From the IMG/VR virus record IMGVR_UViG_3300045539_000120, positions 1-64,000 of that record: a stretch of DNA of 64,000 nt; one strand, given 5' to 3'. Source of the DNA: a virus. The notes under the pieces were generated by a model. It saw nothing but the letters and a program-made list of their open reading frames with translations. It ran no database searches and was not told the DNA's origin. Both the position numbers and the translations under genes were made by a program. Positions 3,150 through 57,851 of the stretch are shown here, piece by piece. The first letter of the stretch is position 1. The number at the start of each line of letters is the position of its first letter.

Positions 3150-3166
3150 TTCTATATTTTTTTAAT

Positions 3167-3307
3167 TTATCTGTCTGCTAATCTTTTAAATACTGCTGCA
3201 ACTTCTGGCTCTTCTAATTTCTTTTTCAAAGATTGCCATTTTTCCTCCAAGAATTGGTTGTACTCTTGTTCAGTTTTAAATCCCATCTTTTTCCAATCCA
3301 TTTTCAT
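3167..3307 (-). CDS. small hypothetical protein (46 aa)
   Basis: ATG directly downstream of the element copy at 3310-3400; below ORF-track cutoff. Confidence 0.3.
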   Translation of the reverse strand: MKMDWKKMGFKTEQEYNQFLEEKWQSLKKKLEEPEVAAVFKRLADR

Positions 3308-3309
3308 AA

Positions 3310-3400
3310 TATTGTTTGTTTTAATTATAATGTAAATATAACTATAATATTTGAACTATGAAAACTTTTTTGAATTTATTTCCAAAAAGTTATTAACAAT
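3310..3400 (-). promoter_or_regulatory. conserved intergenic element copy (candidate phage promoter/leader)
   Basis: attgtttgttttaattataatgtaaatataactataatatttgaactatgaaaactttttt...aaaagttattaacaat. Confidence 0.5.
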
Positions 3401-3403
3401 TTG

Positions 3404-3890
3404 TAGTCAGGACAGGAATCGAACCTGCAACGCAAAACTTAATTCGTCTTAGCCTACTTTCACCTGACTTCCGTTCTAATGGAGGCATCGCACCTCAAAG
3501 ACTGTTCATAAACTAGTTTAATTAGCGTAGTCAGGACAGGATTCGAACCTATATGAGTTTCTTTCACCTCCACTCCATATAGAGTTGCGTCTCTCCAATT
3601 CCGCCACCTGACCTTTTGCAATTATGGTTGATTAGACCTCATGAAGTTTATTGCCCTCCAAGCCCAGTTTCCGTAACGGCGCAACTGAATTTCAAAACCC
3701 GCTCTTGCCTCACGCCCAAGAGTATGTCGGTACGTTTTACAGATACGCACATCATCTGAGTAATCAACTCATTGTAGTTAGGGTAGGATTCGAACCTACG
3801 ACATTTGCAACCAAAGGGATGTGATAGACCGCTTTCACATTACGCAATACCTAACTTCCATAAACCTAGCCTGACCTTCCAGACAGTACA
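3404..3890 (-). tRNA. array of at least 4 tRNA-like genes; several are non-canonical (e.g. a ~66-nt element at 3404-3470 with a perfect 7-bp acceptor stem and T-arm but a shortened D/anticodon region)
   Basis: repeated minus-strand T-loop signatures (RC of ggaatcgaacc / ggattcgaacc) with complementary acceptor strands (AGTCAGG/CCTGACT; GGTCAGG/CCTGACT; AGTTAGG/CCTAACT); anticodon arms could not be folded canonically by hand. Confidence 0.4.
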
Positions 3891-3934
3891 TGTCAAAATT
3901 AATTTGGCGCCTTGTTATGTAGTAGGTTCTTATT

Positions 3935-4534
3935 TTATATCATTACATCAATAAATTGTTTCTTCCAATCTAACCAAGGTTCCTTTGTCACCTTGAAATG
4001 GGTTAAATATTTCCAATGCATAAATAGTTTACGTTCATTCCAATCTTCATATTTCTTAATCAGATCACTTTGTTTATCTAGTTCAGTTTTATAAGTATCT
4101 GCCTTTTCAGAAAGTTTAGTAAAAACATCATCTATTTTTGCCAATCGGTTTACTGCCTTTTCAGTTGGTAAACCTTGTACCGATAACGAAACTATCAATT
4201 CTTTAAGATTAACTATTTTACTAATCATAGAATTTAATGTTGGAACACATGCATTATATGAAGTCTTTGCAGATTCTAAATGTCTTTTAAAACCATCAAA
4301 GTTCTCTTGTAATTCTCTGTCCTCTAAATCCTCTTTAAATAAAGATTCGGGATCGATTCCAAAGTATTTGTCAAAATCGTCTCCACCTGGAAGTGGCGCT
4401 TTAACTGCCAAACCTGCAATGTCCATATCTTTAACTTCATTAAGAACCGCAACATAACAATTACCTCGTTGAGTTTCTAAAAGTTCTTTAACCTGTTTTT
4501 CGTTATATAGTTTCATATTATAATTTAATTTCAA
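3935..4534 (-). CDS. hypothetical protein
   Basis: 199-aa ORF. Confidence 0.45.
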   Translation of the reverse strand: MKLNYNMKLYNEKQVKELLETQRGNCYVAVLNEVKDMDIAGLAVKAPLPGGDDFDKYFGIDPESLFKEDLEDRELQENFDGFKRHLESAKTSYNACVPTLNSMISKIVNLKELIVSLSVQGLPTEKAVNRLAKIDDVFTKLSEKADTYKTELDKQSDLIKKYEDWNERKLFMHWKYLTHFKVTKEPWLDWKKQFIDVMI

Positions 4535-6619: not shown

Positions 6620-6701
6620 ATATTGTTTGTTTTAATTATAATGTAAATATAACTATTATATTTGACATAGTAAACATTTATTTAATAAAGTTATTAACAA
6701 T
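6620..6701 (-). promoter_or_regulatory. conserved intergenic element copy
   Basis: tattgtttgttttaattataatgtaaatataactattatatttgacatagtaaacatttatttaataaagttattaacaat. Confidence 0.5.
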
Positions 6702-7247
6702 TTCATCGTAGACGTTTGATTGTTTAATACCTTCACTGCTTCTTGGTGTTAGGACGAAGTTTTCTAGTCCATAACCTCCATTTGCTTGAGGACTCATATT
6801 TAAGTCATCAACCGCAACCCATTCTTTTACGTTTGGATTTAATTCTAAATATTGAAGAATTTCAAGGATTCTTTTGCGTTCTAACCATCCTTTCCACATA
6901 AACAGATCATTTGCCATAGGATCGAATTCATGTAGGTTTGGTGTAATTGCAATAGGTCTTTTTGAGATACCTTGCGCCTCGTAATAATCTCCAAGTTCCT
7001 CTAAGGTTGCATGCAATTTCCAATCAGAACTTACAACTATTTCAGCACCTGTAACTTCAAGTACTTTATTTAATATCTTAATTGCTTTTTTATCAAAATC
7101 ATCAAAACGTATTTCAACAGGTGCATCCTTTAAATTTGGACTGGATTCCGGATTTTGGGATCTATATTTAGACCATTTCTTATTTCTACCTCCCCAATTA
7201 TTTAAGAGACAAATCACACCATCGTTATCTAAGAATATTACCTTCAT
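6678..7247 (-). CDS. HAD-superfamily phosphatase-like protein (start moved to internal Met MKVIFLDNDGV)
   Basis: DxDG-type motif FLDNDGV at the proposed N-terminus; the longer ORF-track start at 7364 would overlap the upstream gene by 113 nt. Confidence 0.4.
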   Translation of the reverse strand: MKVIFLDNDGVICLLNNWGGRNKKWSKYRSQNPESSPNLKDAPVEIRFDDFDKKAIKILNKVLEVTGAEIVVSSDWKLHATLEELGDYYEAQGISKRPIAITPNLHEFDPMANDLFMWKGWLERKRILEILQYLELNPNVKEWVAVDDLNMSPQANGGYGLENFVLTPRSSEGIKQSNVYDEIVNNFIK

Positions 7248-7251
7248 CTTC

Positions 7252-7764
7252 TTATTTCTTTTTAAATTTGTAAAAATCTTCCAACAATTTACGTTCAACT
7301 CCTTTACGGTATTTGCAACCAATAAATGTTGATGTAAAATATCCCATACCTTGTGGAATTTCATGTGCTATTTCTAAAATTGCTCCGGATCTATCAGATG
7401 CTCGGTTCTCAGAATTTGTAGCCAAGATGCATACATCTCTCTCATAAATAAATGCCCACCATTCATTTGCACAACTCCATTCCCTTTCAAACATTTCAGA
7501 TAACCATGCATTTCTTTGATGCACGTGGGCTCTCTCTACTGTTAATGCATCTTTTCTATTTGGAATTCTCGCAAAATCCACGGATGCAAATGAATCTAAT
7601 GCTGCCTGTGTAATACCTATAACCCTCCAACTATCTGTGTAAAATGCACCTTGTGATTGTGAAAATCCTCTAATCAAATAGGTTCTATTTACCCCTGGTG
7701 TATTATATGCCACTTGTGTTGCTTTAAAAATATTAAAGTAGCTTTCAATATGTTCTTGTATCAT
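7252..7764 (-). CDS. hypothetical protein
   Basis: 170-aa ORF directly downstream of an element copy. Confidence 0.45.
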   Translation of the reverse strand: MIQEHIESYFNIFKATQVAYNTPGVNRTYLIRGFSQSQGAFYTDSWRVIGITQAALDSFASVDFARIPNRKDALTVERAHVHQRNAWLSEMFEREWSCANEWWAFIYERDVCILATNSENRASDRSGAILEIAHEIPQGMGYFTSTFIGCKYRKGVERKLLEDFYKFKKK

Positions 7765-7850
7765 TGTGTTGTTTTAATTATAATGTAAATATAACTAAAG
7801 TTTATGACCCGTGAAAACTTTTTTACACTTATTTTCAAAAAAGATAAAAA
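7765..7850 (-). promoter_or_regulatory. conserved intergenic element copy (variant lacking the GTTATTAACAAT module)
   Basis: gttgttttaattataatgtaaatataactaaagtttatgacccgtgaaaactttttt. Confidence 0.45.
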
Positions 7851-7891
7851 AGTCTCTCTATCTCATGATAAATATCAATAAACCAAATCCC

Positions 7892-8029
7892 ATGGCAAAA
7901 GCTGCAACACAATCTAATGTACTTGAAAAACCAAAAAAGGTAAGAAAAGGGGTACATGCAAAAACAAAATCTTCAAAAAACAAGGGTTCTCAAAACTACA
8001 AAAAGATTTACAAAGGTCAAGGTAAATAA
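7892..8029 (+). CDS. small lysine-rich basic protein (45 aa), the only plausible plus-strand gene here
   Basis: MAKAATQSNVLEKPKKVRKGVHAKTKSSKNKGSQNYKKIYKGQGK; followed by a GC-rich non-coding region and a terminator readable on the plus strand; start codon choice uncertain. Confidence 0.25.
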   Translation: MAKAATQSNVLEKPKKVRKGVHAKTKSSKNKGSQNYKKIYKGQGK

Positions 8030-8034
8030 TCCCA

Positions 8035-8291
8035 TTTGGGCGACGTGATGCAGGGGCCTTTTAAATATCCCGACAATATGTGCCTATGATATTCTCCCCT
8101 CGGGAAGGTCTCATTGCTTCATTTGGCATCTAATAAATCAAATAGTCGGTTGGGTATTAATCAAAACATCGGAGGGTTACATGTACTTTAAGGGTTCTGT
8201 ACCCTCTGACCCATTCTGGGGAATAGGCAAGGGAATCCGAAGGGGACCCTTAAAAATAAATTTTCCAAAAATTCCCTGAGCACTCTGACAA
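8035..8291. ncRNA. candidate structured ncRNA (GC-rich, ORF-free island)
   Basis: local GC clearly above the ~30% background; nested helices readable, e.g. GAGGGTTACA...TGTACCCTC, ATTC-TGGG-GAAT, AAGGG...CCCTT; bounded by the terminator at 8292-8330; strand unresolved. Confidence 0.35.
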
Positions 8292-8330
8292 ATAAAAAAG
8301 ACCCTAATTGCTTAAGGTCTTTTGAGTTTA
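8292..8330. terminator. bidirectional intrinsic terminator
   Basis: AAAAAAGACC-ctaattgcttaa-GGTCTTTTGAGTTT: 6-bp stem with A-run on one side and T-run on the other; ends minus-strand gene 8347-8562 and any plus-strand transcript. Confidence 0.6.
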
Positions 8331-8346
8331 GTAGGTAGTTAGATTC

Positions 8347-8562
8347 TTAGATAGAACCTGGGCGTAATACTGTAATTGCTGAAGCAACCATAACAGAATC
8401 CCGAACTGTAAGTGCACCTGCCGCTTGCGCTTGGCCTGCTGCCTGAATTAAAACATTCAATGCTCCTTCTGGAGTAATGTTTTTAATTTCATCAAAGATT
8501 GGAGTGAATCCTTCTTCTTGTTCTACTTCCTGTGAACGTTCTTGTGTAGCTGATTTTGACAT
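8347..8562 (-). CDS. hypothetical protein (Ala/Gln-rich)
   Basis: 71-aa ORF followed by a strong terminator. Confidence 0.45.
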   Translation of the reverse strand: MSKSATQERSQEVEQEEGFTPIFDEIKNITPEGALNVLIQAAGQAQAAGALTVRDSVMVASAITVLRPGSI

Positions 8563-8602
8563 AATTTTTAATTTTGTTTATTGATTATTATATAGGTTCT
8601 TT

Positions 8603-9274
8603 TTATTTTGTTTCAATGATTGGTTTAATAATTAGGAAAGATGCAGTCCATTCATTTGTAATTTCAAACTTAAGTTTATTCTTTTTTACAAATTCTTCTA
8701 CTGCTGGATTTACACCAAATACTCCCGAGTAGCCATCTTCAACGCTACCTGCTTCTCCTTTAATAGACCACTGATAACCATCTGCCCAAACATGAATATC
8801 CTTTTTGTTTTTTAATTTTGGTACAGATTTCCAATCAACAATTAAATAATCATGACCTGACATTAATCCTCCCTGTTTTAATTTTGGCCACCATAATTCA
8901 AGGTCCTGTTTAACATGAGCATAATCGTGGTTTCCATCAATGTAAATATAGTCCAATGAATTATCTTGGAATAAATGTACCATTTCTTCTCCTAACCCTC
9001 TAAGCATAAATGCTCTATCTTCATATCCTCTAATAGATTCCATTGTTTGCGCAAAAGCATCTTGGTGATTTTTATGATTTGATGAGTCTAAATACTCTTC
9101 ATCAGATAATTCTCTCCATGGATCTATAAGATATAATGTACCATTCCATCTTTCTAAAATATTACGTGAAAATTCTCCTTTAAATACTCCAATCTCAACA
9201 CCAACATGTGAATTTGAATTATTTAGAATATTTGAGATAGTTTCAATTCTATCGGTGTTTAATGCTTTTTTCAT
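8603..9274 (-). CDS. class I SAM-dependent methyltransferase-like protein (Methyltransf_24/TylF-like)
   Basis: VGVEIGVFKGEFS (SAM-binding-like) and IYIDGNHDY...DLE...GG...GHDY pattern typical of this fold. Confidence 0.45.
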   Translation of the reverse strand: MKKALNTDRIETISNILNNSNSHVGVEIGVFKGEFSRNILERWNGTLYLIDPWRELSDEEYLDSSNHKNHQDAFAQTMESIRGYEDRAFMLRGLGEEMVHLFQDNSLDYIYIDGNHDYAHVKQDLELWWPKLKQGGLMSGHDYLIVDWKSVPKLKNKKDIHVWADGYQWSIKGEAGSVEDGYSGVFGVNPAVEEFVKKNKLKFEITNEWTASFLIIKPIIETK

Positions 9275-10173
9275 TATAGTGATTTTAACATTGATATTAA
9301 GTTTGGTTGCGGAGACATGTCTGATTTATCCTTACGCGTAGAAGTATGACTTAACATACCTTTCACCTTTCCTTTATAAGCATCTGCTTTAAAATCAAAT
9401 GCAACCTGTGGAGTTTCAGTTTTTAACCATTCAACTAATCCTTTTTTAATGTCTATTCCATTACGTTCTTTAATAAACAAGATTAATTCTCTGAGTGCCT
9501 CTATTTGTGCATCTGAATATTTATGATAATATTGAAACCCTCTAAACTTGAATCCCAAATCACATACTTGGTCCTTGTGAACGATTGCTCCTGTATATGT
9601 TTTAAAAACATCTCCAACCTTTGTTAATGGACCAAAGTTACAAACTTCAATTCCTACTGAATTAACATGCATTGATTGAGAACCATTATCACCAAGGTGA
9701 TTTGCGTAAGCACCATCAGGTAAACATTTTACAATAATACCATCGTATTTGGTTTCTTTACCATTTATAGATGGACCACCTACAATAAATTCAGTTGCAA
9801 TTCTACCTCTAGTATCGTCATTCCACATATCTGATGTTGCAATTGGATTTGGACCACCTGCCGTATGATGTAAAAATAAATACTCTGGTTTATTTGGACC
9901 TGAGTAATATTCATCAGTATCTAAATATGCTAATTCAAATTGAGACACTGTGATTTGTGTATCTAAATTCTTTTCTAATTTTTCTTTGTTGAAAATTGCA
10001 AGTTGTGTGGTTGGACCAACTAATCCATCCATAACAAGTCCTCTACTACCCTGAAAATTCTTTACAGTTTGTTCGGTCGTTGGACCAAATACACCGTCTG
10101 CCTTTAATCCTAATTCTTTTTGAAGTAACTTAACATCTTCGCCAGTGTCTCCTCTCTTTAATAAACTTCTCAT
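9274..10173 (-). CDS. endolysin: N-acetylmuramoyl-L-alanine amidase (PGRP/Amidase_2) with N-terminal peptidoglycan-binding repeats
   Basis: two PG_binding_1-like repeats (LKRGDTGEDVKLLQKELGL..DGVFGPTT; GSRGLVMDGLVGPTT) then FLHHTAG amidase motif. Confidence 0.65.
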   Translation of the reverse strand: MRSLLKRGDTGEDVKLLQKELGLKADGVFGPTTEQTVKNFQGSRGLVMDGLVGPTTQLAIFNKEKLEKNLDTQITVSQFELAYLDTDEYYSGPNKPEYLFLHHTAGGPNPIATSDMWNDDTRGRIATEFIVGGPSINGKETKYDGIIVKCLPDGAYANHLGDNGSQSMHVNSVGIEVCNFGPLTKVGDVFKTYTGAIVHKDQVCDLGFKFRGFQYYHKYSDAQIEALRELILFIKERNGIDIKKGLVEWLKTETPQVAFDFKADAYKGKVKGMLSHTSTRKDKSDMSPQPNLISMLKSL

Positions 10174-36704: not shown

Positions 36705-36708
36705 ATCT

Positions 36709-36858
36709 TTAGTTTTTATAAAATGCTAATAATTCTTTTGATTTCTTGATTTGTTGTCGCAGTTCTTCCATCTTTGAGTGGGAAAGCTCTGACATTTCAT
36801 ACAATGCTTGCATCATCACTATTTGATTTTCTAACATTAACATTTCTATTCCGTTCAT
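36709..36858 (-). CDS. small hypothetical protein (49 aa)
   Basis: ATG immediately after the element copy at 36859-36950. Confidence 0.3.
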   Translation of the reverse strand: MNGIEMLMLENQIVMMQALYEMSELSHSKMEELRQQIKKSKELLAFYKN

Positions 36859-36950
36859 AATTTGTTTGTTTTAATTATAATGTAAATATAACTAATTCCC
36901 GTGACATAAAAAAATTTAATTGTACTTATTTTCAAAAAGTCTCCGGAACA
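36859..36950 (-). promoter_or_regulatory. conserved intergenic element copy (variant 3' module)
   Basis: aatttgtttgttttaattataatgtaaatataactaattcccgtgacataaaaaaatttaattgtacttattttcaaaaagtctcc. Confidence 0.45.
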
Positions 36951-37183
36951 CCTTATTTTACCCACAGGCTTAAAGACTTTAGTTATATTGTCCACGTGGA
37001 TATTTGTTTCAGATATTAAAATTATCTTTGTAAATAATATATCATGTGCAGGTTAAAATAGGCCAGGTTGCAATCCCTGTATACATTTGTTTGATTATTA
37101 ATTGTTAGATGTTATGTTTTACAATAATATTATTGATGTCCTAGAATCATCCAAATGAACCTATATAATTTACCCAGAAGACA

Positions 37184-37210
37184 TAAAAAAACCAGACTAA
37201 TTTGTCTGGT
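37184..37210 (-). terminator. intrinsic terminator
   Basis: minus strand reads CCAGAC-aaatta-GTCTGG followed by TTTTTTT; 10 nt downstream of the stop of gene 37221-37622. Confidence 0.55.
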
Positions 37211-37220
37211 TAATTTGTAT

Positions 37221-54803: not shown

Positions 54804-57500
54804 TTATTGTTTAGAAACATCAATAATTTTAATTGCTCTATCAAATCTTGCTTCCAAGTCTTGTATTGCATCTATCAATGGCTGTAAATCAATTGATTCG
54901 CCAGCGGCTTTAGTATCTTTATTTATTTTATCTGCTGTTTTCTTAACTCCTATTACTGTTTCTTTAACTGTGTCCATTACACCAGAAACAACGTCTCCAA
55001 TTCCACTGGTAGCCTTTCCTTGTGTTTCAACTGATTTTTCAAGATTTTCCACAGTTCCAGATAATTGTTTAACTGCTTCTAATAATTTATCGGCTAAAAC
55101 TGACATTGCAGATTCTCCTTTATTTTTGGCAAGATCAGTTAATGCAGTAAACATACTCGTAGTTGCATTAATTGCTGGAATATTCATAACCTTACTAGAA
55201 TCGGCAATCATCTTATATGATTTTCCTATTTTAACGCTTGCATCTGCACGTGCATTAAAATCATCAACATCAACTTCATCATTAAAGTTAATAGCAGCTT
55301 CAAACGCTTTCATAACTCCACCTGCTGCAAGGTTAATTGCAGAGAACCCTTTACCAACTTCGGTTAATGGTTTTGCTAAGTTTTGTATATTTGGACCTAA
55401 TAATGCAATTTTTTCAAGTAATTCAATTGGCGATGGAGTATCTCCTCCAAATAATTTTCCGATTCCTTCGAATAATCCTCCAATTGCAGTTCCAATTCCA
55501 CCCACAACACTTGCTCCACCTATTGCTGCAGAGAATATTAACCATGCTCCTCCTAATGCTGCAACACCAACTGCAAGACCAAGCATATTTTCAATTCCTA
55601 TTTCATTTTTAAATCTTGCAAAAACATCTACGATACCATTTATTGGTGCTAATAATACTTCGGTTATTCCCTTTGCAACAGTAACCAATGATGGCATGGC
55701 AGGGGCTAACGCTGATAAAATCCAACCAACTGCAACTATAGTGATTGCTGCTACAATAATTCCAAGTGCTCCTAATAATAAGGTCACTGGTGTTAGTGCA
55801 GTAACCGCAATTCCCATTACCACTATGGCGGCACCCATAACTCCAAGAGCAAGAGCAACATTCATGGTCCAATCCTGCGGAGGTGCAATCATCGCTGATG
55901 GTAAAAGTTGAAATAACCACGCGACTGCTACTACTGCGAATGCAGCAACAACTACACCAACAAGAGCCTTTAACATATCGCCTATTCCCATTTTTCCAAC
56001 TGTTTTGCTAGATAGCCAAAGAATTGTACCAAATATAACAACTGACAATCCGGCCTTTAACGTCCATCCTGGTTCAGGTGCTACAAAATCAATTCCGCCT
56101 AATGCTTGAAAAATCCATGCAGTTGCAAGAACTCCAAATGCAACTATTGGAATAGCAAGTGTCATAAATAACATTTCTTTAATATTCATTCCTCCAATTG
56201 CCTTCGATATAATATAGAATGGAATTGCAAATATTAATAGTGCAAATCCTGCTTTAAGAACCCACATTGGATCTGGAGCAACCCATGTACTAACATCTCC
56301 TAATAATCCAAATATAAATGCCGTAGCAACAATTCCAATTGCCATCAATGGAATGGCTATTGAACCAAATATAAGTTCTTTAATACTTGCTCTTTTAACT
56401 GCTTTCAATATAAAGTAAAATCCTATTGCAAATAATCCAATTGCGAATGCAGATTTTAAAGTCCACATTGGATCTGGAGCAACCCATGTACTAACATCTC
56501 CTAACATTCCAAATATAAGTGCAACTCCAAGAATTGATACTGCCATTAATGGAATAGCAACTGATGCAAAAATAATATCTTTTAAACTTGCTCTTTTAAT
56601 TGCTTTTAATATAAAACTGAATCCAATTGCAAATAATCCAATAGCCAATCCAGCTCTTAAAGTCCATCCTAAATCCGGAGCAACCGGATTACTTGGCATT
56701 AACATAAATGCATAAGCAACTCCAACAACTCCTATGGCAATTGCTACCATAGATAAACTTACCATACCTAATGTCATTAATCCCTTCTTATCGGCTGTTA
56801 AACCACTCTTAGTTAATGATCGAGTTATCATTCCAAATGACAATGATAAAAAGATAAAAGCGATTCCTATCAATGCAGCTGTTGCAAATTGTGCAAACGA
56901 AATTGGCTTTACCATAGAAAGAATATATGAAGCAGCAGTAGTTCCAGCTGCCATTATCACCATGGCAAGTCCAACACCTGCAAGTAATTTACTCATACTT
57001 GGAGTATCTCCATTTCCTACTCCTGATACCTTTCCAATTATCCTATCAGTTAGGCCAGGTCCTTTAAACGCTTCACTTATTTTAACAAACATAGGTACTA
57101 ACATTACGAATAATACTCCAAGTGCTAGGGCCGTTAATATTTGTATAGCGCTAACAGGTTGCATATATCCTAGAATTCCAGAAGCAGCAACTAAAGCACC
57201 TGCCATTATTACGATTGCAACACCAGTTTTGGCAGCACCCATAATACCTGGCATTTTAGTTTTTCCTCCACCTCCAGAACCACCTTCTTTTTGATCAGCT
57301 TGTTGTTTTAATAAACCTTTAATATCTAATAAAACATCAGTTTGTTTTTTTAATTCCTTTACTGTATCTATTGCATAAGTACTAAGACTTATAACAACGG
57401 CGTTAATTTGCATTAAAATACTAGCGGATGCCTCGGAAGCTTCTGCTATTCTTTGTAATGGCGATGCTAAAATTGAAAGTTGTTTTGTATTATTAGTCAC
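54804..57500 (-). CDS. tape-measure-like protein with highly hydrophobic tandem internal repeats
   Basis: 898 aa; Gly-rich linker GGSGGGGKTK; at least 4 repeats of ~71 aa (AP(D/E)P(M/G)WTLKAGxAxxxFAIxFxxIxKAxxxxxIKExxF...), coiled-coil C-terminus; position downstream of the sheath-tube genes; could instead be a membrane protein. Confidence 0.45.
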   Translation of the reverse strand: MTNNTKQLSILASPLQRIAEASEASASILMQINAVVISLSTYAIDTVKELKKQTDVLLDIKGLLKQQADQKEGGSGGGGKTKMPGIMGAAKTGVAIVIMAGALVAASGILGYMQPVSAIQILTALALGVLFVMLVPMFVKISEAFKGPGLTDRIIGKVSGVGNGDTPSMSKLLAGVGLAMVIMAAGTTAASYILSMVKPISFAQFATAALIGIAFIFLSLSFGMITRSLTKSGLTADKKGLMTLGMVSLSMVAIAIGVVGVAYAFMLMPSNPVAPDLGWTLRAGLAIGLFAIGFSFILKAIKRASLKDIIFASVAIPLMAVSILGVALIFGMLGDVSTWVAPDPMWTLKSAFAIGLFAIGFYFILKAVKRASIKELIFGSIAIPLMAIGIVATAFIFGLLGDVSTWVAPDPMWVLKAGFALLIFAIPFYIISKAIGGMNIKEMLFMTLAIPIVAFGVLATAWIFQALGGIDFVAPEPGWTLKAGLSVVIFGTILWLSSKTVGKMGIGDMLKALVGVVVAAFAVVAVAWLFQLLPSAMIAPPQDWTMNVALALGVMGAAIVVMGIAVTALTPVTLLLGALGIIVAAITIVAVGWILSALAPAMPSLVTVAKGITEVLLAPINGIVDVFARFKNEIGIENMLGLAVGVAALGGAWLIFSAAIGGASVVGGIGTAIGGLFEGIGKLFGGDTPSPIELLEKIALLGPNIQNLAKPLTEVGKGFSAINLAAGGVMKAFEAAINFNDEVDVDDFNARADASVKIGKSYKMIADSSKVMNIPAINATTSMFTALTDLAKNKGESAMSVLADKLLEAVKQLSGTVENLEKSVETQGKATSGIGDVVSGVMDTVKETVIGVKKTADKINKDTKAAGESIDLQPLIDAIQDLEARFDRAIKIIDVSKQ

Positions 57501-57550
57501 GTGAACTTTATTTTTTTATATAAGACATATCTAGCATTATATATCTAAAT

Positions 57551-57580
57551 AAAAAGGATCCCACTCGGGGATCCTTTTTT
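57551..57580. terminator. bidirectional palindromic hairpin
   Basis: AAAAA-GGATCCC-actcg-GGGATCC-TTTTTT (two BamHI sites). Confidence 0.5.
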
Positions 57581-57851
57581 ATAGCTTCGGCATTTTCATG
57601 CTAGGCATTTTCATGCTAGGCATTTTCATGTTATTCATCATTCCTGCTGTTGAATCATTTTGCCCTTCGTTCTGTTTATTCTCCGCCTTAATATGTTCTA
57701 TTAAGTCTTTCACCAAATAATGGAATTCATAATATTCCAAATTCTCAAGTTCGCTTGGTTGTATATGTAATTTAAGATAAATATGAAATTTAGTCTTAAA
57801 GAAGTTCTCCAGCGATATCTTGAACAATGAAAAGAGATTTGATGCCGTCAC
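57579..57851 (-). CDS. hypothetical protein with C-terminal MKMPS tandem repeats
   Basis: 3 x 16-bp DNA repeat ggcattttcatgctag at 57590-57637. Confidence 0.3.
   Translation of the reverse strand: MTASNLFSLFKISLENFFKTKFHIYLKLHIQPSELENLEYYEFHYLVKDLIEHIKAENKQNEGQNDSTAGMMNNMKMPSMKMPSMKMPKL

Follow-up and report, generated by a model that had tools for sequence, protein, structure and literature searches.

A phage DNA in which nearly all genes lie on the minus strand, and whose GC content is 0.322, raises a question where that gene series is interrupted by a GC-richer stretch with no open reading frame: does this stretch encode a structured RNA and, if so, from which strand and as part of which transcript? 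The DNA, here called the window, is the whole 64,000-nt stretch that was analysed and surveyed for ORFs. The first-pass annotation had described the interruption as a GC-rich, helix-rich, ORF-free island closed by a bidirectional terminator and lying downstream of the only plus-strand ORF, and had suggested a separately transcribed structured RNA whose strand it left open. The composition was borne out, in that the ORF-free segment 8030-8295 has a GC content of 0.429 (0.412 for 8035-8340), a value equalled by only 5% of 300-nt windows, the richest of which are tRNA clusters. The stems, the terminator, the A- and T-runs and the lysine-rich ORF that had been named are also all present (Table 1). 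ARAGORN placed 24 tRNAs in the window, none of them within 7765-8346, and it reported no tmRNA.

The description as helix-rich held in part. The stems exist, but their stability on the single sequence is not beyond chance: the z-score of the minimum free energy (MFE) of the whole island against dinucleotide shuffles is -0.51 on the plus strand and -0.96 on the minus strand, both unremarkable, and the best single-sequence fold, the central 93 nt of the plus strand (8134-8226), reaches only -1.55. The single-sequence MFE is no better than that of the shuffles, and the visible helices are not evidence by themselves.

Table 1. Features of the island, its flanks and its wider surroundings; positions are those of the window unless a contig is named.
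Feature	Position	Strand	Description
HAD_SAK_2 'RNA repair' domain protein	6681-7364	minus	
170-aa protein	7255-7764	minus	no assigned family; beyond the gap
Upstream region/short leader of lysine-rich ORF	7835-7891	plus	holds GATAAATAT at 7867-7875
45-aa lysine-rich gene	7892-8029	plus	encodes MAKAATQSNVLEKPKKVRKGVHAKTKSSKNKGSQNYKKIYKGQGK; stop codon 8027-8029
5' domain	8030-8133	plus	small hairpin CCC 8031-8033 / GGG 8038-8040, then irregular hairpin region
Irregular 5' hairpin (example)	8086-8089 / 8111-8114 around 8096-8098 / 8103-8105	plus	
Hairpin Hb	8141-8158	plus	AAUA-GUCGGUUGG-GUAUU
Conserved 17-mer ATAGTCGGTTGGGTATT	8142-8158	plus	overlaps Hb; core GGTTGGGTATT
Main stem-loop Hc	8169-8209	plus	GAGGG...CCCTC stem extended to 16 pairs
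Stem GAGGGTTACA / TGTACCCTC	8172-8181 / 8198-8206		9 bp, single bulged T
Variable G-rich hairpin segment	8210-8251	plus	ATTC/GAAT and AAGGG/CCCTT; length hypervariable in relatives
Stem ATTC / GAAT	8213-8216 / 8221-8224		
Stem AAGGG / CCCTT	8229-8233 / 8247-8251		
A/U-rich tract AAAAATAAATTTTCCAAAAAT	8252-8272	plus	start of the most conserved tail
TCCCTGAG, then mini-hairpin CTGAG-N4-CTGA	8276-8288	plus	rest of the most conserved tail, which spans 8252-8288; coordinates are those of the mini-hairpin
Bidirectional intrinsic terminator	8296-8323 (arms 8296-8307 / 8312-8323)	both	12-bp stem, 4-nt loop
71-aa protein gene	8347-8562	minus	convergent with island; C-terminus ...AGALTVRDSVMVASAITVLRPGSI; positional anchor of island across lineages; protein at 8350-8562
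Methyltransferase	8606-9274	minus	
Amidase endolysin	9277-10173	minus	
-7-like boxes of promoter module	1665, 3332, 5640, 6643, 7785, 19443, 20391, 22697, 24298, 25507	minus	
-7-like boxes, continued	29517, 33704, 36277, 36882, 39426, 43669, 50168, 53412, 53635	minus	
RNA-repair-type genes	window 6681-7364; L035 446-1015; L036 1645-2469; L045 213-647	minus (window)	

All further plus-strand ORFs of 80 aa or more lie 75-100% within minus-strand ORFs or in the tRNA cluster, so that the lysine-rich ORF is the sole credible plus-strand gene in the window, as had been claimed. A word-indexed search returned 124 homologues of its product, and a full profile search gave 327 clusters at 50% identity; almost without exception the members stand alone and measure about 45 aa, and there is no domain fusion among them. 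The family consensus is MAK-x9-KPKxxRxGVHAKTKTSKxKSSKNYKKxYKGQGK, with the conserved core GVHAKTK...SSKNY.K.YKGQGK, and the nearest homologue from an isolate is a protein of Flavobacterium phage immuto annotated 'hypothetical protein'. No Pfam or NCBIfam match was obtained; a PHROGs match, to phrog_516, was weak and not significant (E 0.009), and the best match of a PDB profile search, which paired the N-terminal half with the N-terminus of the eukaryotic ribosomal protein eL29, was likewise insignificant (E 6.5). As judged from its sequence, the ORF is a real protein gene of a large, uncharacterised phage family, and this family of about 45-aa lysine-rich proteins is genuine and widespread. 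Its conservation is also a sign of plus-strand expression across the ORF. Phages of the immuto type and marine phages carry the gene inside operons that are tightly packed and co-directional, and no island-like sequence follows it. In the window, an 8-nt direct repeat, AATCCCAT, at 7886-7893 and 8028-8035 flanks the ORF exactly and overlaps its start and stop codons; since it is absent as a conserved feature in relatives, it is probably due to chance and not an insertion scar.

At its other end the island is bounded by the terminator, the stem of which has an A-run before it and a T-run after it; the tail reads TTTTTTATTT in the minus direction and TTTTGAGTTT in the plus direction. A terminator scan flags the minus-strand direction only, and the plus-direction U-tail is weaker still in L016, L035 and L042-L044. 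With its stem, loop and T-runs on both strands the structure is nonetheless bidirectional, as proposed, albeit with the weaker tail on the plus strand. It is kept in all 16 homologues described below, and it serves both the 71-aa gene on the minus strand and the island transcript on the plus strand.

Homologues of the locus were recovered from metagenomic phage contigs by searching from the 71-aa protein and from the small ORF. They comprise 16 distinct homologous islands, each just past the terminator of the conserved 71-aa gene. In group 1, which has ten members (the window, L010, L016, L019, L033, L035, L042, L043, L044 and L049), the order is ORF, island, shared terminator and convergent 71-aa gene. 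In group 2 (L002, L003, L004, L014 and L015), the island lies between the terminator and the promoter of the next gene, and no homologue of the lysine-rich ORF is found in up to 13 kb of available DNA. In L045-L047, a 68-aa minus-strand gene (1658-1864) is inserted between the lysine-rich ORF and the island; the 5' half of the island is replaced there by unrelated sequence and the 3' half is kept. Near more distant relatives of the 71-aa gene, the island is absent. Because the island occurs without the ORF in sister lineages, and the ORF without the island in distant phages, the two are separable modules. The first-pass annotation had named an ordinary protein gene at this position in related phages as something that would refute its proposal; what they carry instead is a homologous non-coding island.

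Within group 1, the aligned island columns are 77-83% identical, as compared with 75-89% for the flanking coding genes and 57-82% for the flanking proteins. Three parts show no variation in this alignment: GGTTGGGTATT at the core of the 17-mer, CCTCTG on the 3' side of Hc, and the greater part of the tail. All groups share one order of blocks, which runs (UU)GGAU...GGNUAUUC; GGGUUCUG.(G)CCCUCUGA; YUCUGGGG; a variable G-rich segment; and AAAAAU(N)UUCC-AAAAAUYYCC-UGAG-N4-CUGA, followed by the terminator. No conserved ORF runs through the island: from one to another of the 16 homologues, stop-free stretches vary in both frame and sequence, and even the conserved blocks contain 1-nt indels. The island is therefore not coding, and it bears no trace of a decayed ORF.

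The segment in the middle is hypervariable. In L044, at 510-539, Tandem Repeats Finder detects 3.3 copies of a 9-nt unit, CCCGGGAGA, and in L004, at 4324-4355, four copies of an 8-nt unit, CCCCAGAG; it reports no tandem repeat in the window. L043, which is near-identical to L044, has one 9-nt unit fewer, and a difference in copy number between contigs so alike indicates that slippage or diversification is active. Beyond the recovered loci, the island has a narrow distribution. An exact-pattern scan of the tail finds the island-bearing loci, and the same motif gave 44 matches in 185,579 bacterial and archaeal representative genomes, none with the flanking features of the island, which we judged to be chance. 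An exact scan of IMG/VR for the 17-mer gave two matches, also attributed to chance. A covariance model of the central domain detected its own training clade only; L045 was marginal, group 2 went undetected, and there was no second copy in the window.

Folding the homologues together, as the first-pass annotation had proposed, gave a consensus structure with compensatory changes. The RNAalifold consensus was derived from the 10 group-1 sequences, and all pair counts refer to the structure from that alignment. It contains a hairpin just after the stop codon, a 5' hairpin region, Hb, the 16-pair Hc and a possible long-range helix. Over the 10 sequences, 93.7% of cells are paired as compared with 89.7% in column shuffles, none of 500 of which was as high, and sliding the partner columns leaves pairing at 38-52% only. 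Changes on both sides affect nine pairs, where 5.1 ± 1.3 would be expected; one of 500 shuffles reached that number. The compensatory changes concentrate in the 5' hairpin, where they are CG↔UA, GC↔AU, UA↔CG and AU↔CG, and in the distal part of Hc; helices 3 and 4 of the 5' domain hold six such pairs between two sub-clades, and Hc (helix 6), in which 94.9% of cells are paired, holds three. Because the 10 sequences fall into roughly two sub-clades, these changes may reflect few events.

The 5' domain segment also has a competing upstream pairing that leaves its exact fold unsettled, so that firm ground is limited to Hb, Hc and the fact that covarying 5' hairpins exist. A long-range helix between 8214-8221 and 8275-8282 is possible but unproven, since both sides are invariant within group 1, and the A/U-rich tract is probably single-stranded. 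A further long-range helix enclosing the 5' domain was rejected, as it was significant in one sub-clade only.

The same alignment bears on the strand. Three positions of Hc are G·U in eight or nine of the 10 homologues and Watson-Crick in the rest, and A-U pairs of Hb become G·U in 4 of 10 sequences, changes that are tolerable on the plus strand only. There are 73 G·U cells in all, and the pairs that are canonical in 93.7% of cells on the plus strand are canonical in 78.3% on the minus strand. The central domain has a mean MFE of -28.7 on the plus strand as compared with -16.5 on the minus strand, and the plus strand was the more stable in three of three alignments. Together with the position of the ORF, which ends 2 nt before the first hairpin, the G·U pattern and the folding assign the island to the plus strand. 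Thus, the proposal of a structured RNA stands, on comparative evidence and not on the helices visible in one sequence, and the strand that it had left open is plus. The island is conserved, non-coding and plus-strand, and contains several helices.

The Rfam scan that had been suggested found no known family. At gathering thresholds, the whole window gave tRNAs only; at E <= 10, the region 7700-8450 gave one chance match, to a CRISPR-DR model, inside the ORF; and at E <= 5, the relatives gave only matches far below gathering scores. The island therefore belongs to no Rfam 15 family, whether riboswitch, ribozyme, 6S, RNase P, SRP, GOLLD/ROOL or phage motif, and ARAGORN finds no tRNA in it. Several classes were also considered by inspection and set aside: an HDV-like or pseudoknotted fold, in which the 9-bp pairing 8187-8195 / 8246-8254 is not conserved among relatives; an RNase P-like reading of the minus strand (ACAGAACCC), which conflicts with the strand evidence, is not conserved and has no Rfam match; hammerhead and C/D-box (k-turn) RNAs, the core motifs of which are not conserved; a CRISPR-repeat mimic, GUUGUAG...CUACAAC, seen in some relatives and absent from the window; and a G-quadruplex, the motif for which occurs in 2 of the 16 homologues only.

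As to how the island is transcribed, no plus-strand promoter was identified upstream of the ORF. The one conserved element there is GATAAATAT, which lies about 20 nt ahead of the ATG in all nine of the group-1 loci examined at this point; because it resembles the Bacteroidota -7 box TAnnTTTG only poorly, a promoter role for it is conjectural. The island begins directly after the stop codon, 2 nt separating the two, and since this leaves no space for a promoter before the first hairpin, the island is most simply the 3' part of the ORF transcript. The suggestion that it is separately transcribed is thus unsupported in the window. Stop codon, island and terminator follow one another on the plus strand, so that the island shares its 3' end with the gene in the manner of a 3'-UTR-derived sRNA. 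Two candidates for dedicated promoters elsewhere were rejected. In group 2, a perfect TAAATTTG box on the right strand lies within a TTAACATAAATTTAACA element that also precedes another promoter of minus direction, and in L045 the promoter-like motif is simply the promoter region of the inserted minus-strand gene, read as its reverse complement.

The best-supported interpretation of these results, to which we give an even chance, is that the island specifies a plus-strand, non-coding structured RNA of a new, clade-restricted family, carried here at the 3' end of the small-gene transcript and acting in trans. Such an RNA would probably serve as a trans-acting regulator or decoy, to go by its pattern of conservation. 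Transcription would continue from the lysine-rich protein mRNA and end at the terminator shared with the convergent 71-aa gene, giving an RNA body of about 265 nt plus the terminator hairpin, in which a lineage-specific 5' hairpin domain would be followed by Hb, Hc, the hypervariable G-rich hairpin or repeat segment, the A/U tract, the mini-hairpin and the terminator. The RNA would be stable and would accumulate, be it at full length or as a fragment derived from the 3' UTR; a target RNA or protein would be contacted through the conserved tail and the Hb loop, and expansion of the G-rich segment would be tolerated. A bolder version, which we put forward as a long shot, is that of a modular phage lncRNA whose Hb loop and A/U tail capture a host factor, be it ribosome-associated, RNA-binding or a nucleic-acid-sensing defence protein. 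Here it would be fused to the gene of a ribosomal-protein-like basic micro-protein, the two being made together and possibly forming an RNP, while the G-rich repeats would take part in an arms race.

Alternatively, the island might be a cis-acting 3' UTR with no independent RNA function, whose hairpins shield the lysine-rich protein mRNA, possibly a very abundant one, from 3' exonucleases and insulate the convergent units. We consider this unlikely, although much about the locus would suit it: ORF and island adjoin, one terminator serves both convergent units, the middle is hypervariable, repeat-prone and spacer-like, and the stability of the single sequence is unremarkable. It does not explain, however, why a homologous island persists in group 2 with no ORF upstream, why L045-L047 tolerate a minus-strand gene between ORF and island, or why other phages have the ORF without such a UTR, and simple hairpin protection has no need of the 17-mer core and tail that are invariant in group 1. 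Because island and ORF each persist alone, and because blocks that appear unpaired are invariant in group 1, we favor a function of the island's own, exerted through sequence-specific contacts, over mere protection of an mRNA 3' end.

Another scenario is that the element works as DNA, with iterons and an AT-rich tract forming a replication origin or a packaging or recombination site and the hairpins being incidental. The CAGAG/CTCTG-type tandem or dispersed repeats of relatives, including those of L004 and L044, do lie beside a conserved AT-rich tract, and the position relative to the terminator is fixed whatever the other flank. We regard this scenario as improbable because the helices are kept by way of G·U pairs, which in duplex or minus-strand terms are A·C mismatches, because the window has no tandem repeat and a uniformly negative GC skew with no inflection at 8 kb, and because the island is single-copy and lies among nine screened neighbours that include no replication or terminase gene, the annotated ones being for lysis and a methylase. 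A replication origin in particular was rejected on the skew, the lack of repeats in the window and the dependence of the helices on G·U, the presence of the AT-rich tract notwithstanding.

There is also a slim chance that the island is a functionless remnant, that is, a slippage-prone GC-rich spacer or a decayed gene persisting by descent in a narrow clade. Its conservation at the level of the neighbouring coding DNA, where the flanking proteins are 57-82% identical, and its invariant blocks in group 1 argue against this, as do the substitutions that preserve pairs and the lack of any trace of a decayed ORF. In its favor are the narrow distribution, the absence of any island at L011, L012 and L021-L026, the 71-aa genes of which are close relatives, the hypervariable middle and the lack of an assignable function. 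Finally, a minus-strand RNA, made by read-through or as a leader past the terminator and antisense to the lysine-rich ORF, is barely credible: the best-conserved tail does lie immediately downstream of the terminator in the minus direction in every lineage, and all other genes are on that strand, but helix pairing falls to 78% and folding weakens there, the tail has no acceptable Bacteroidota promoter (as read in the sequence, a mere 7 nt separates TTTG from TAnnTTT), transcription in the minus direction meets a strong terminator, and the gene that follows has a promoter of its own, a copy of the repeated phage promoter, at 7785-7794. In sum, what counts against the DNA-level, remnant and minus-strand explanations is the G·U pattern, together with the blocks that do not vary in group 1 and a GC skew that stays flat.

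A trans-acting plus-strand RNA of this kind would work most like a 3'-UTR-derived or dual-function sRNA, though it is larger, more structured and modular. As in the 3'-UTR-derived sRNAs CpxQ, SroC and DapZ, the RNA lies right behind a coding sequence whose intrinsic terminator it shares, and a conserved, apparently unpaired tract lies near that terminator; unlike them, it is about 265 nt long, hence much longer and more structured, and is found also without an upstream ORF. With the dual-function RNAs SgrS/SgrT, RNAIII/hld and SR1/SR1P, it shares the combination of a conserved small ORF and a conserved structured non-coding part, putatively on one transcript, but here the two are evolutionarily separable and there is no sequence relationship. 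In a further difference from the 3'-UTR-derived sRNAs, Bacteroidota, the host phylum, are generally considered to lack Hfq. Sponge RNAs such as CsrB/RsmZ offer a further parallel in the short repeated motif of the relatives (YUCUGG/GGGAGACC), the G-rich multi-hairpin segment and the variable copy number, whereas the island motif differs from GGA and is present in few and inconsistent copies, and the window has no clear repeats.

GOLLD, ROOL and candidate phage motifs (PMC10690425) are, like the island, phage-borne, GC-enriched and conserved in structure, and occur in tRNA-rich genomes; the island differs in having no Rfam match, in its smaller size, in not adjoining tRNAs and in its hypervariable repeat segment. 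Comparative scans have produced more than ten thousand candidate phage RNA motifs (PMC10690425). The island probably represents a new RNA family and is, in kind, one more conserved phage RNA where thousands of candidates exist. Its interest lies in the setting: regulatory RNAs have hardly been explored in phages of Bacteroidota, hosts whose promoters and translation signals depart from the standard. The locus is a well-delimited candidate for experiment; its strand is resolved, it has blocks invariant in group 1 as well as one hypervariable segment, and among its natural variants some have the ORF and others lack it.

The surrounding DNA identifies the kind of phage. About 20 genes of the window have, 20-30 nt ahead of their starts, nearly the same promoter module, which is about 50 nt long and reads ...GTTTTCACGGGTCAAATATTATAGTTATATTTACATTATAATTAAAACAAAC... 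It looks like one dominant class of phage promoter with a Bacteroidota-type -7 box; its -7 element has the form TAnnTTT, as in promoters of Bacteroidota. A blastn search of 7000-9500 against 50,697 phage records matched only a 74-nt promoter region of Chryseobacterium phage MA9V-2, and one related contig is 235.7 kb long. The -7 box, the MA9V-2 match, the immuto homologue and this large relative together point to a Bacteroidota jumbo phage, and the small clade that carries the island consists of uncultivated, tRNA-rich Bacteroidota jumbo phages that probably infect Flavobacteriia. Several related contigs, among them L043 and L044, end right beside the small ORF, probably because of the repeats of the promoter module.

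Three more ORF-free gaps of at least 380 nt lie in the window, at 3150-3934, 36705-37220 and 57414-57795. No RNA is annotated in the latter two. The first, which is rich in GC, contains a tRNA-Pro that at 87 nt is unusually long and whose Rfam score, 34 bits, is low. Genes of RNA-repair type, with a HAD_SAK_2 phosphatase domain or encoding AAA_33/zeta-toxin-like kinases, recur a few genes from the small ORF in several unrelated tRNA-rich phages (Table 1).
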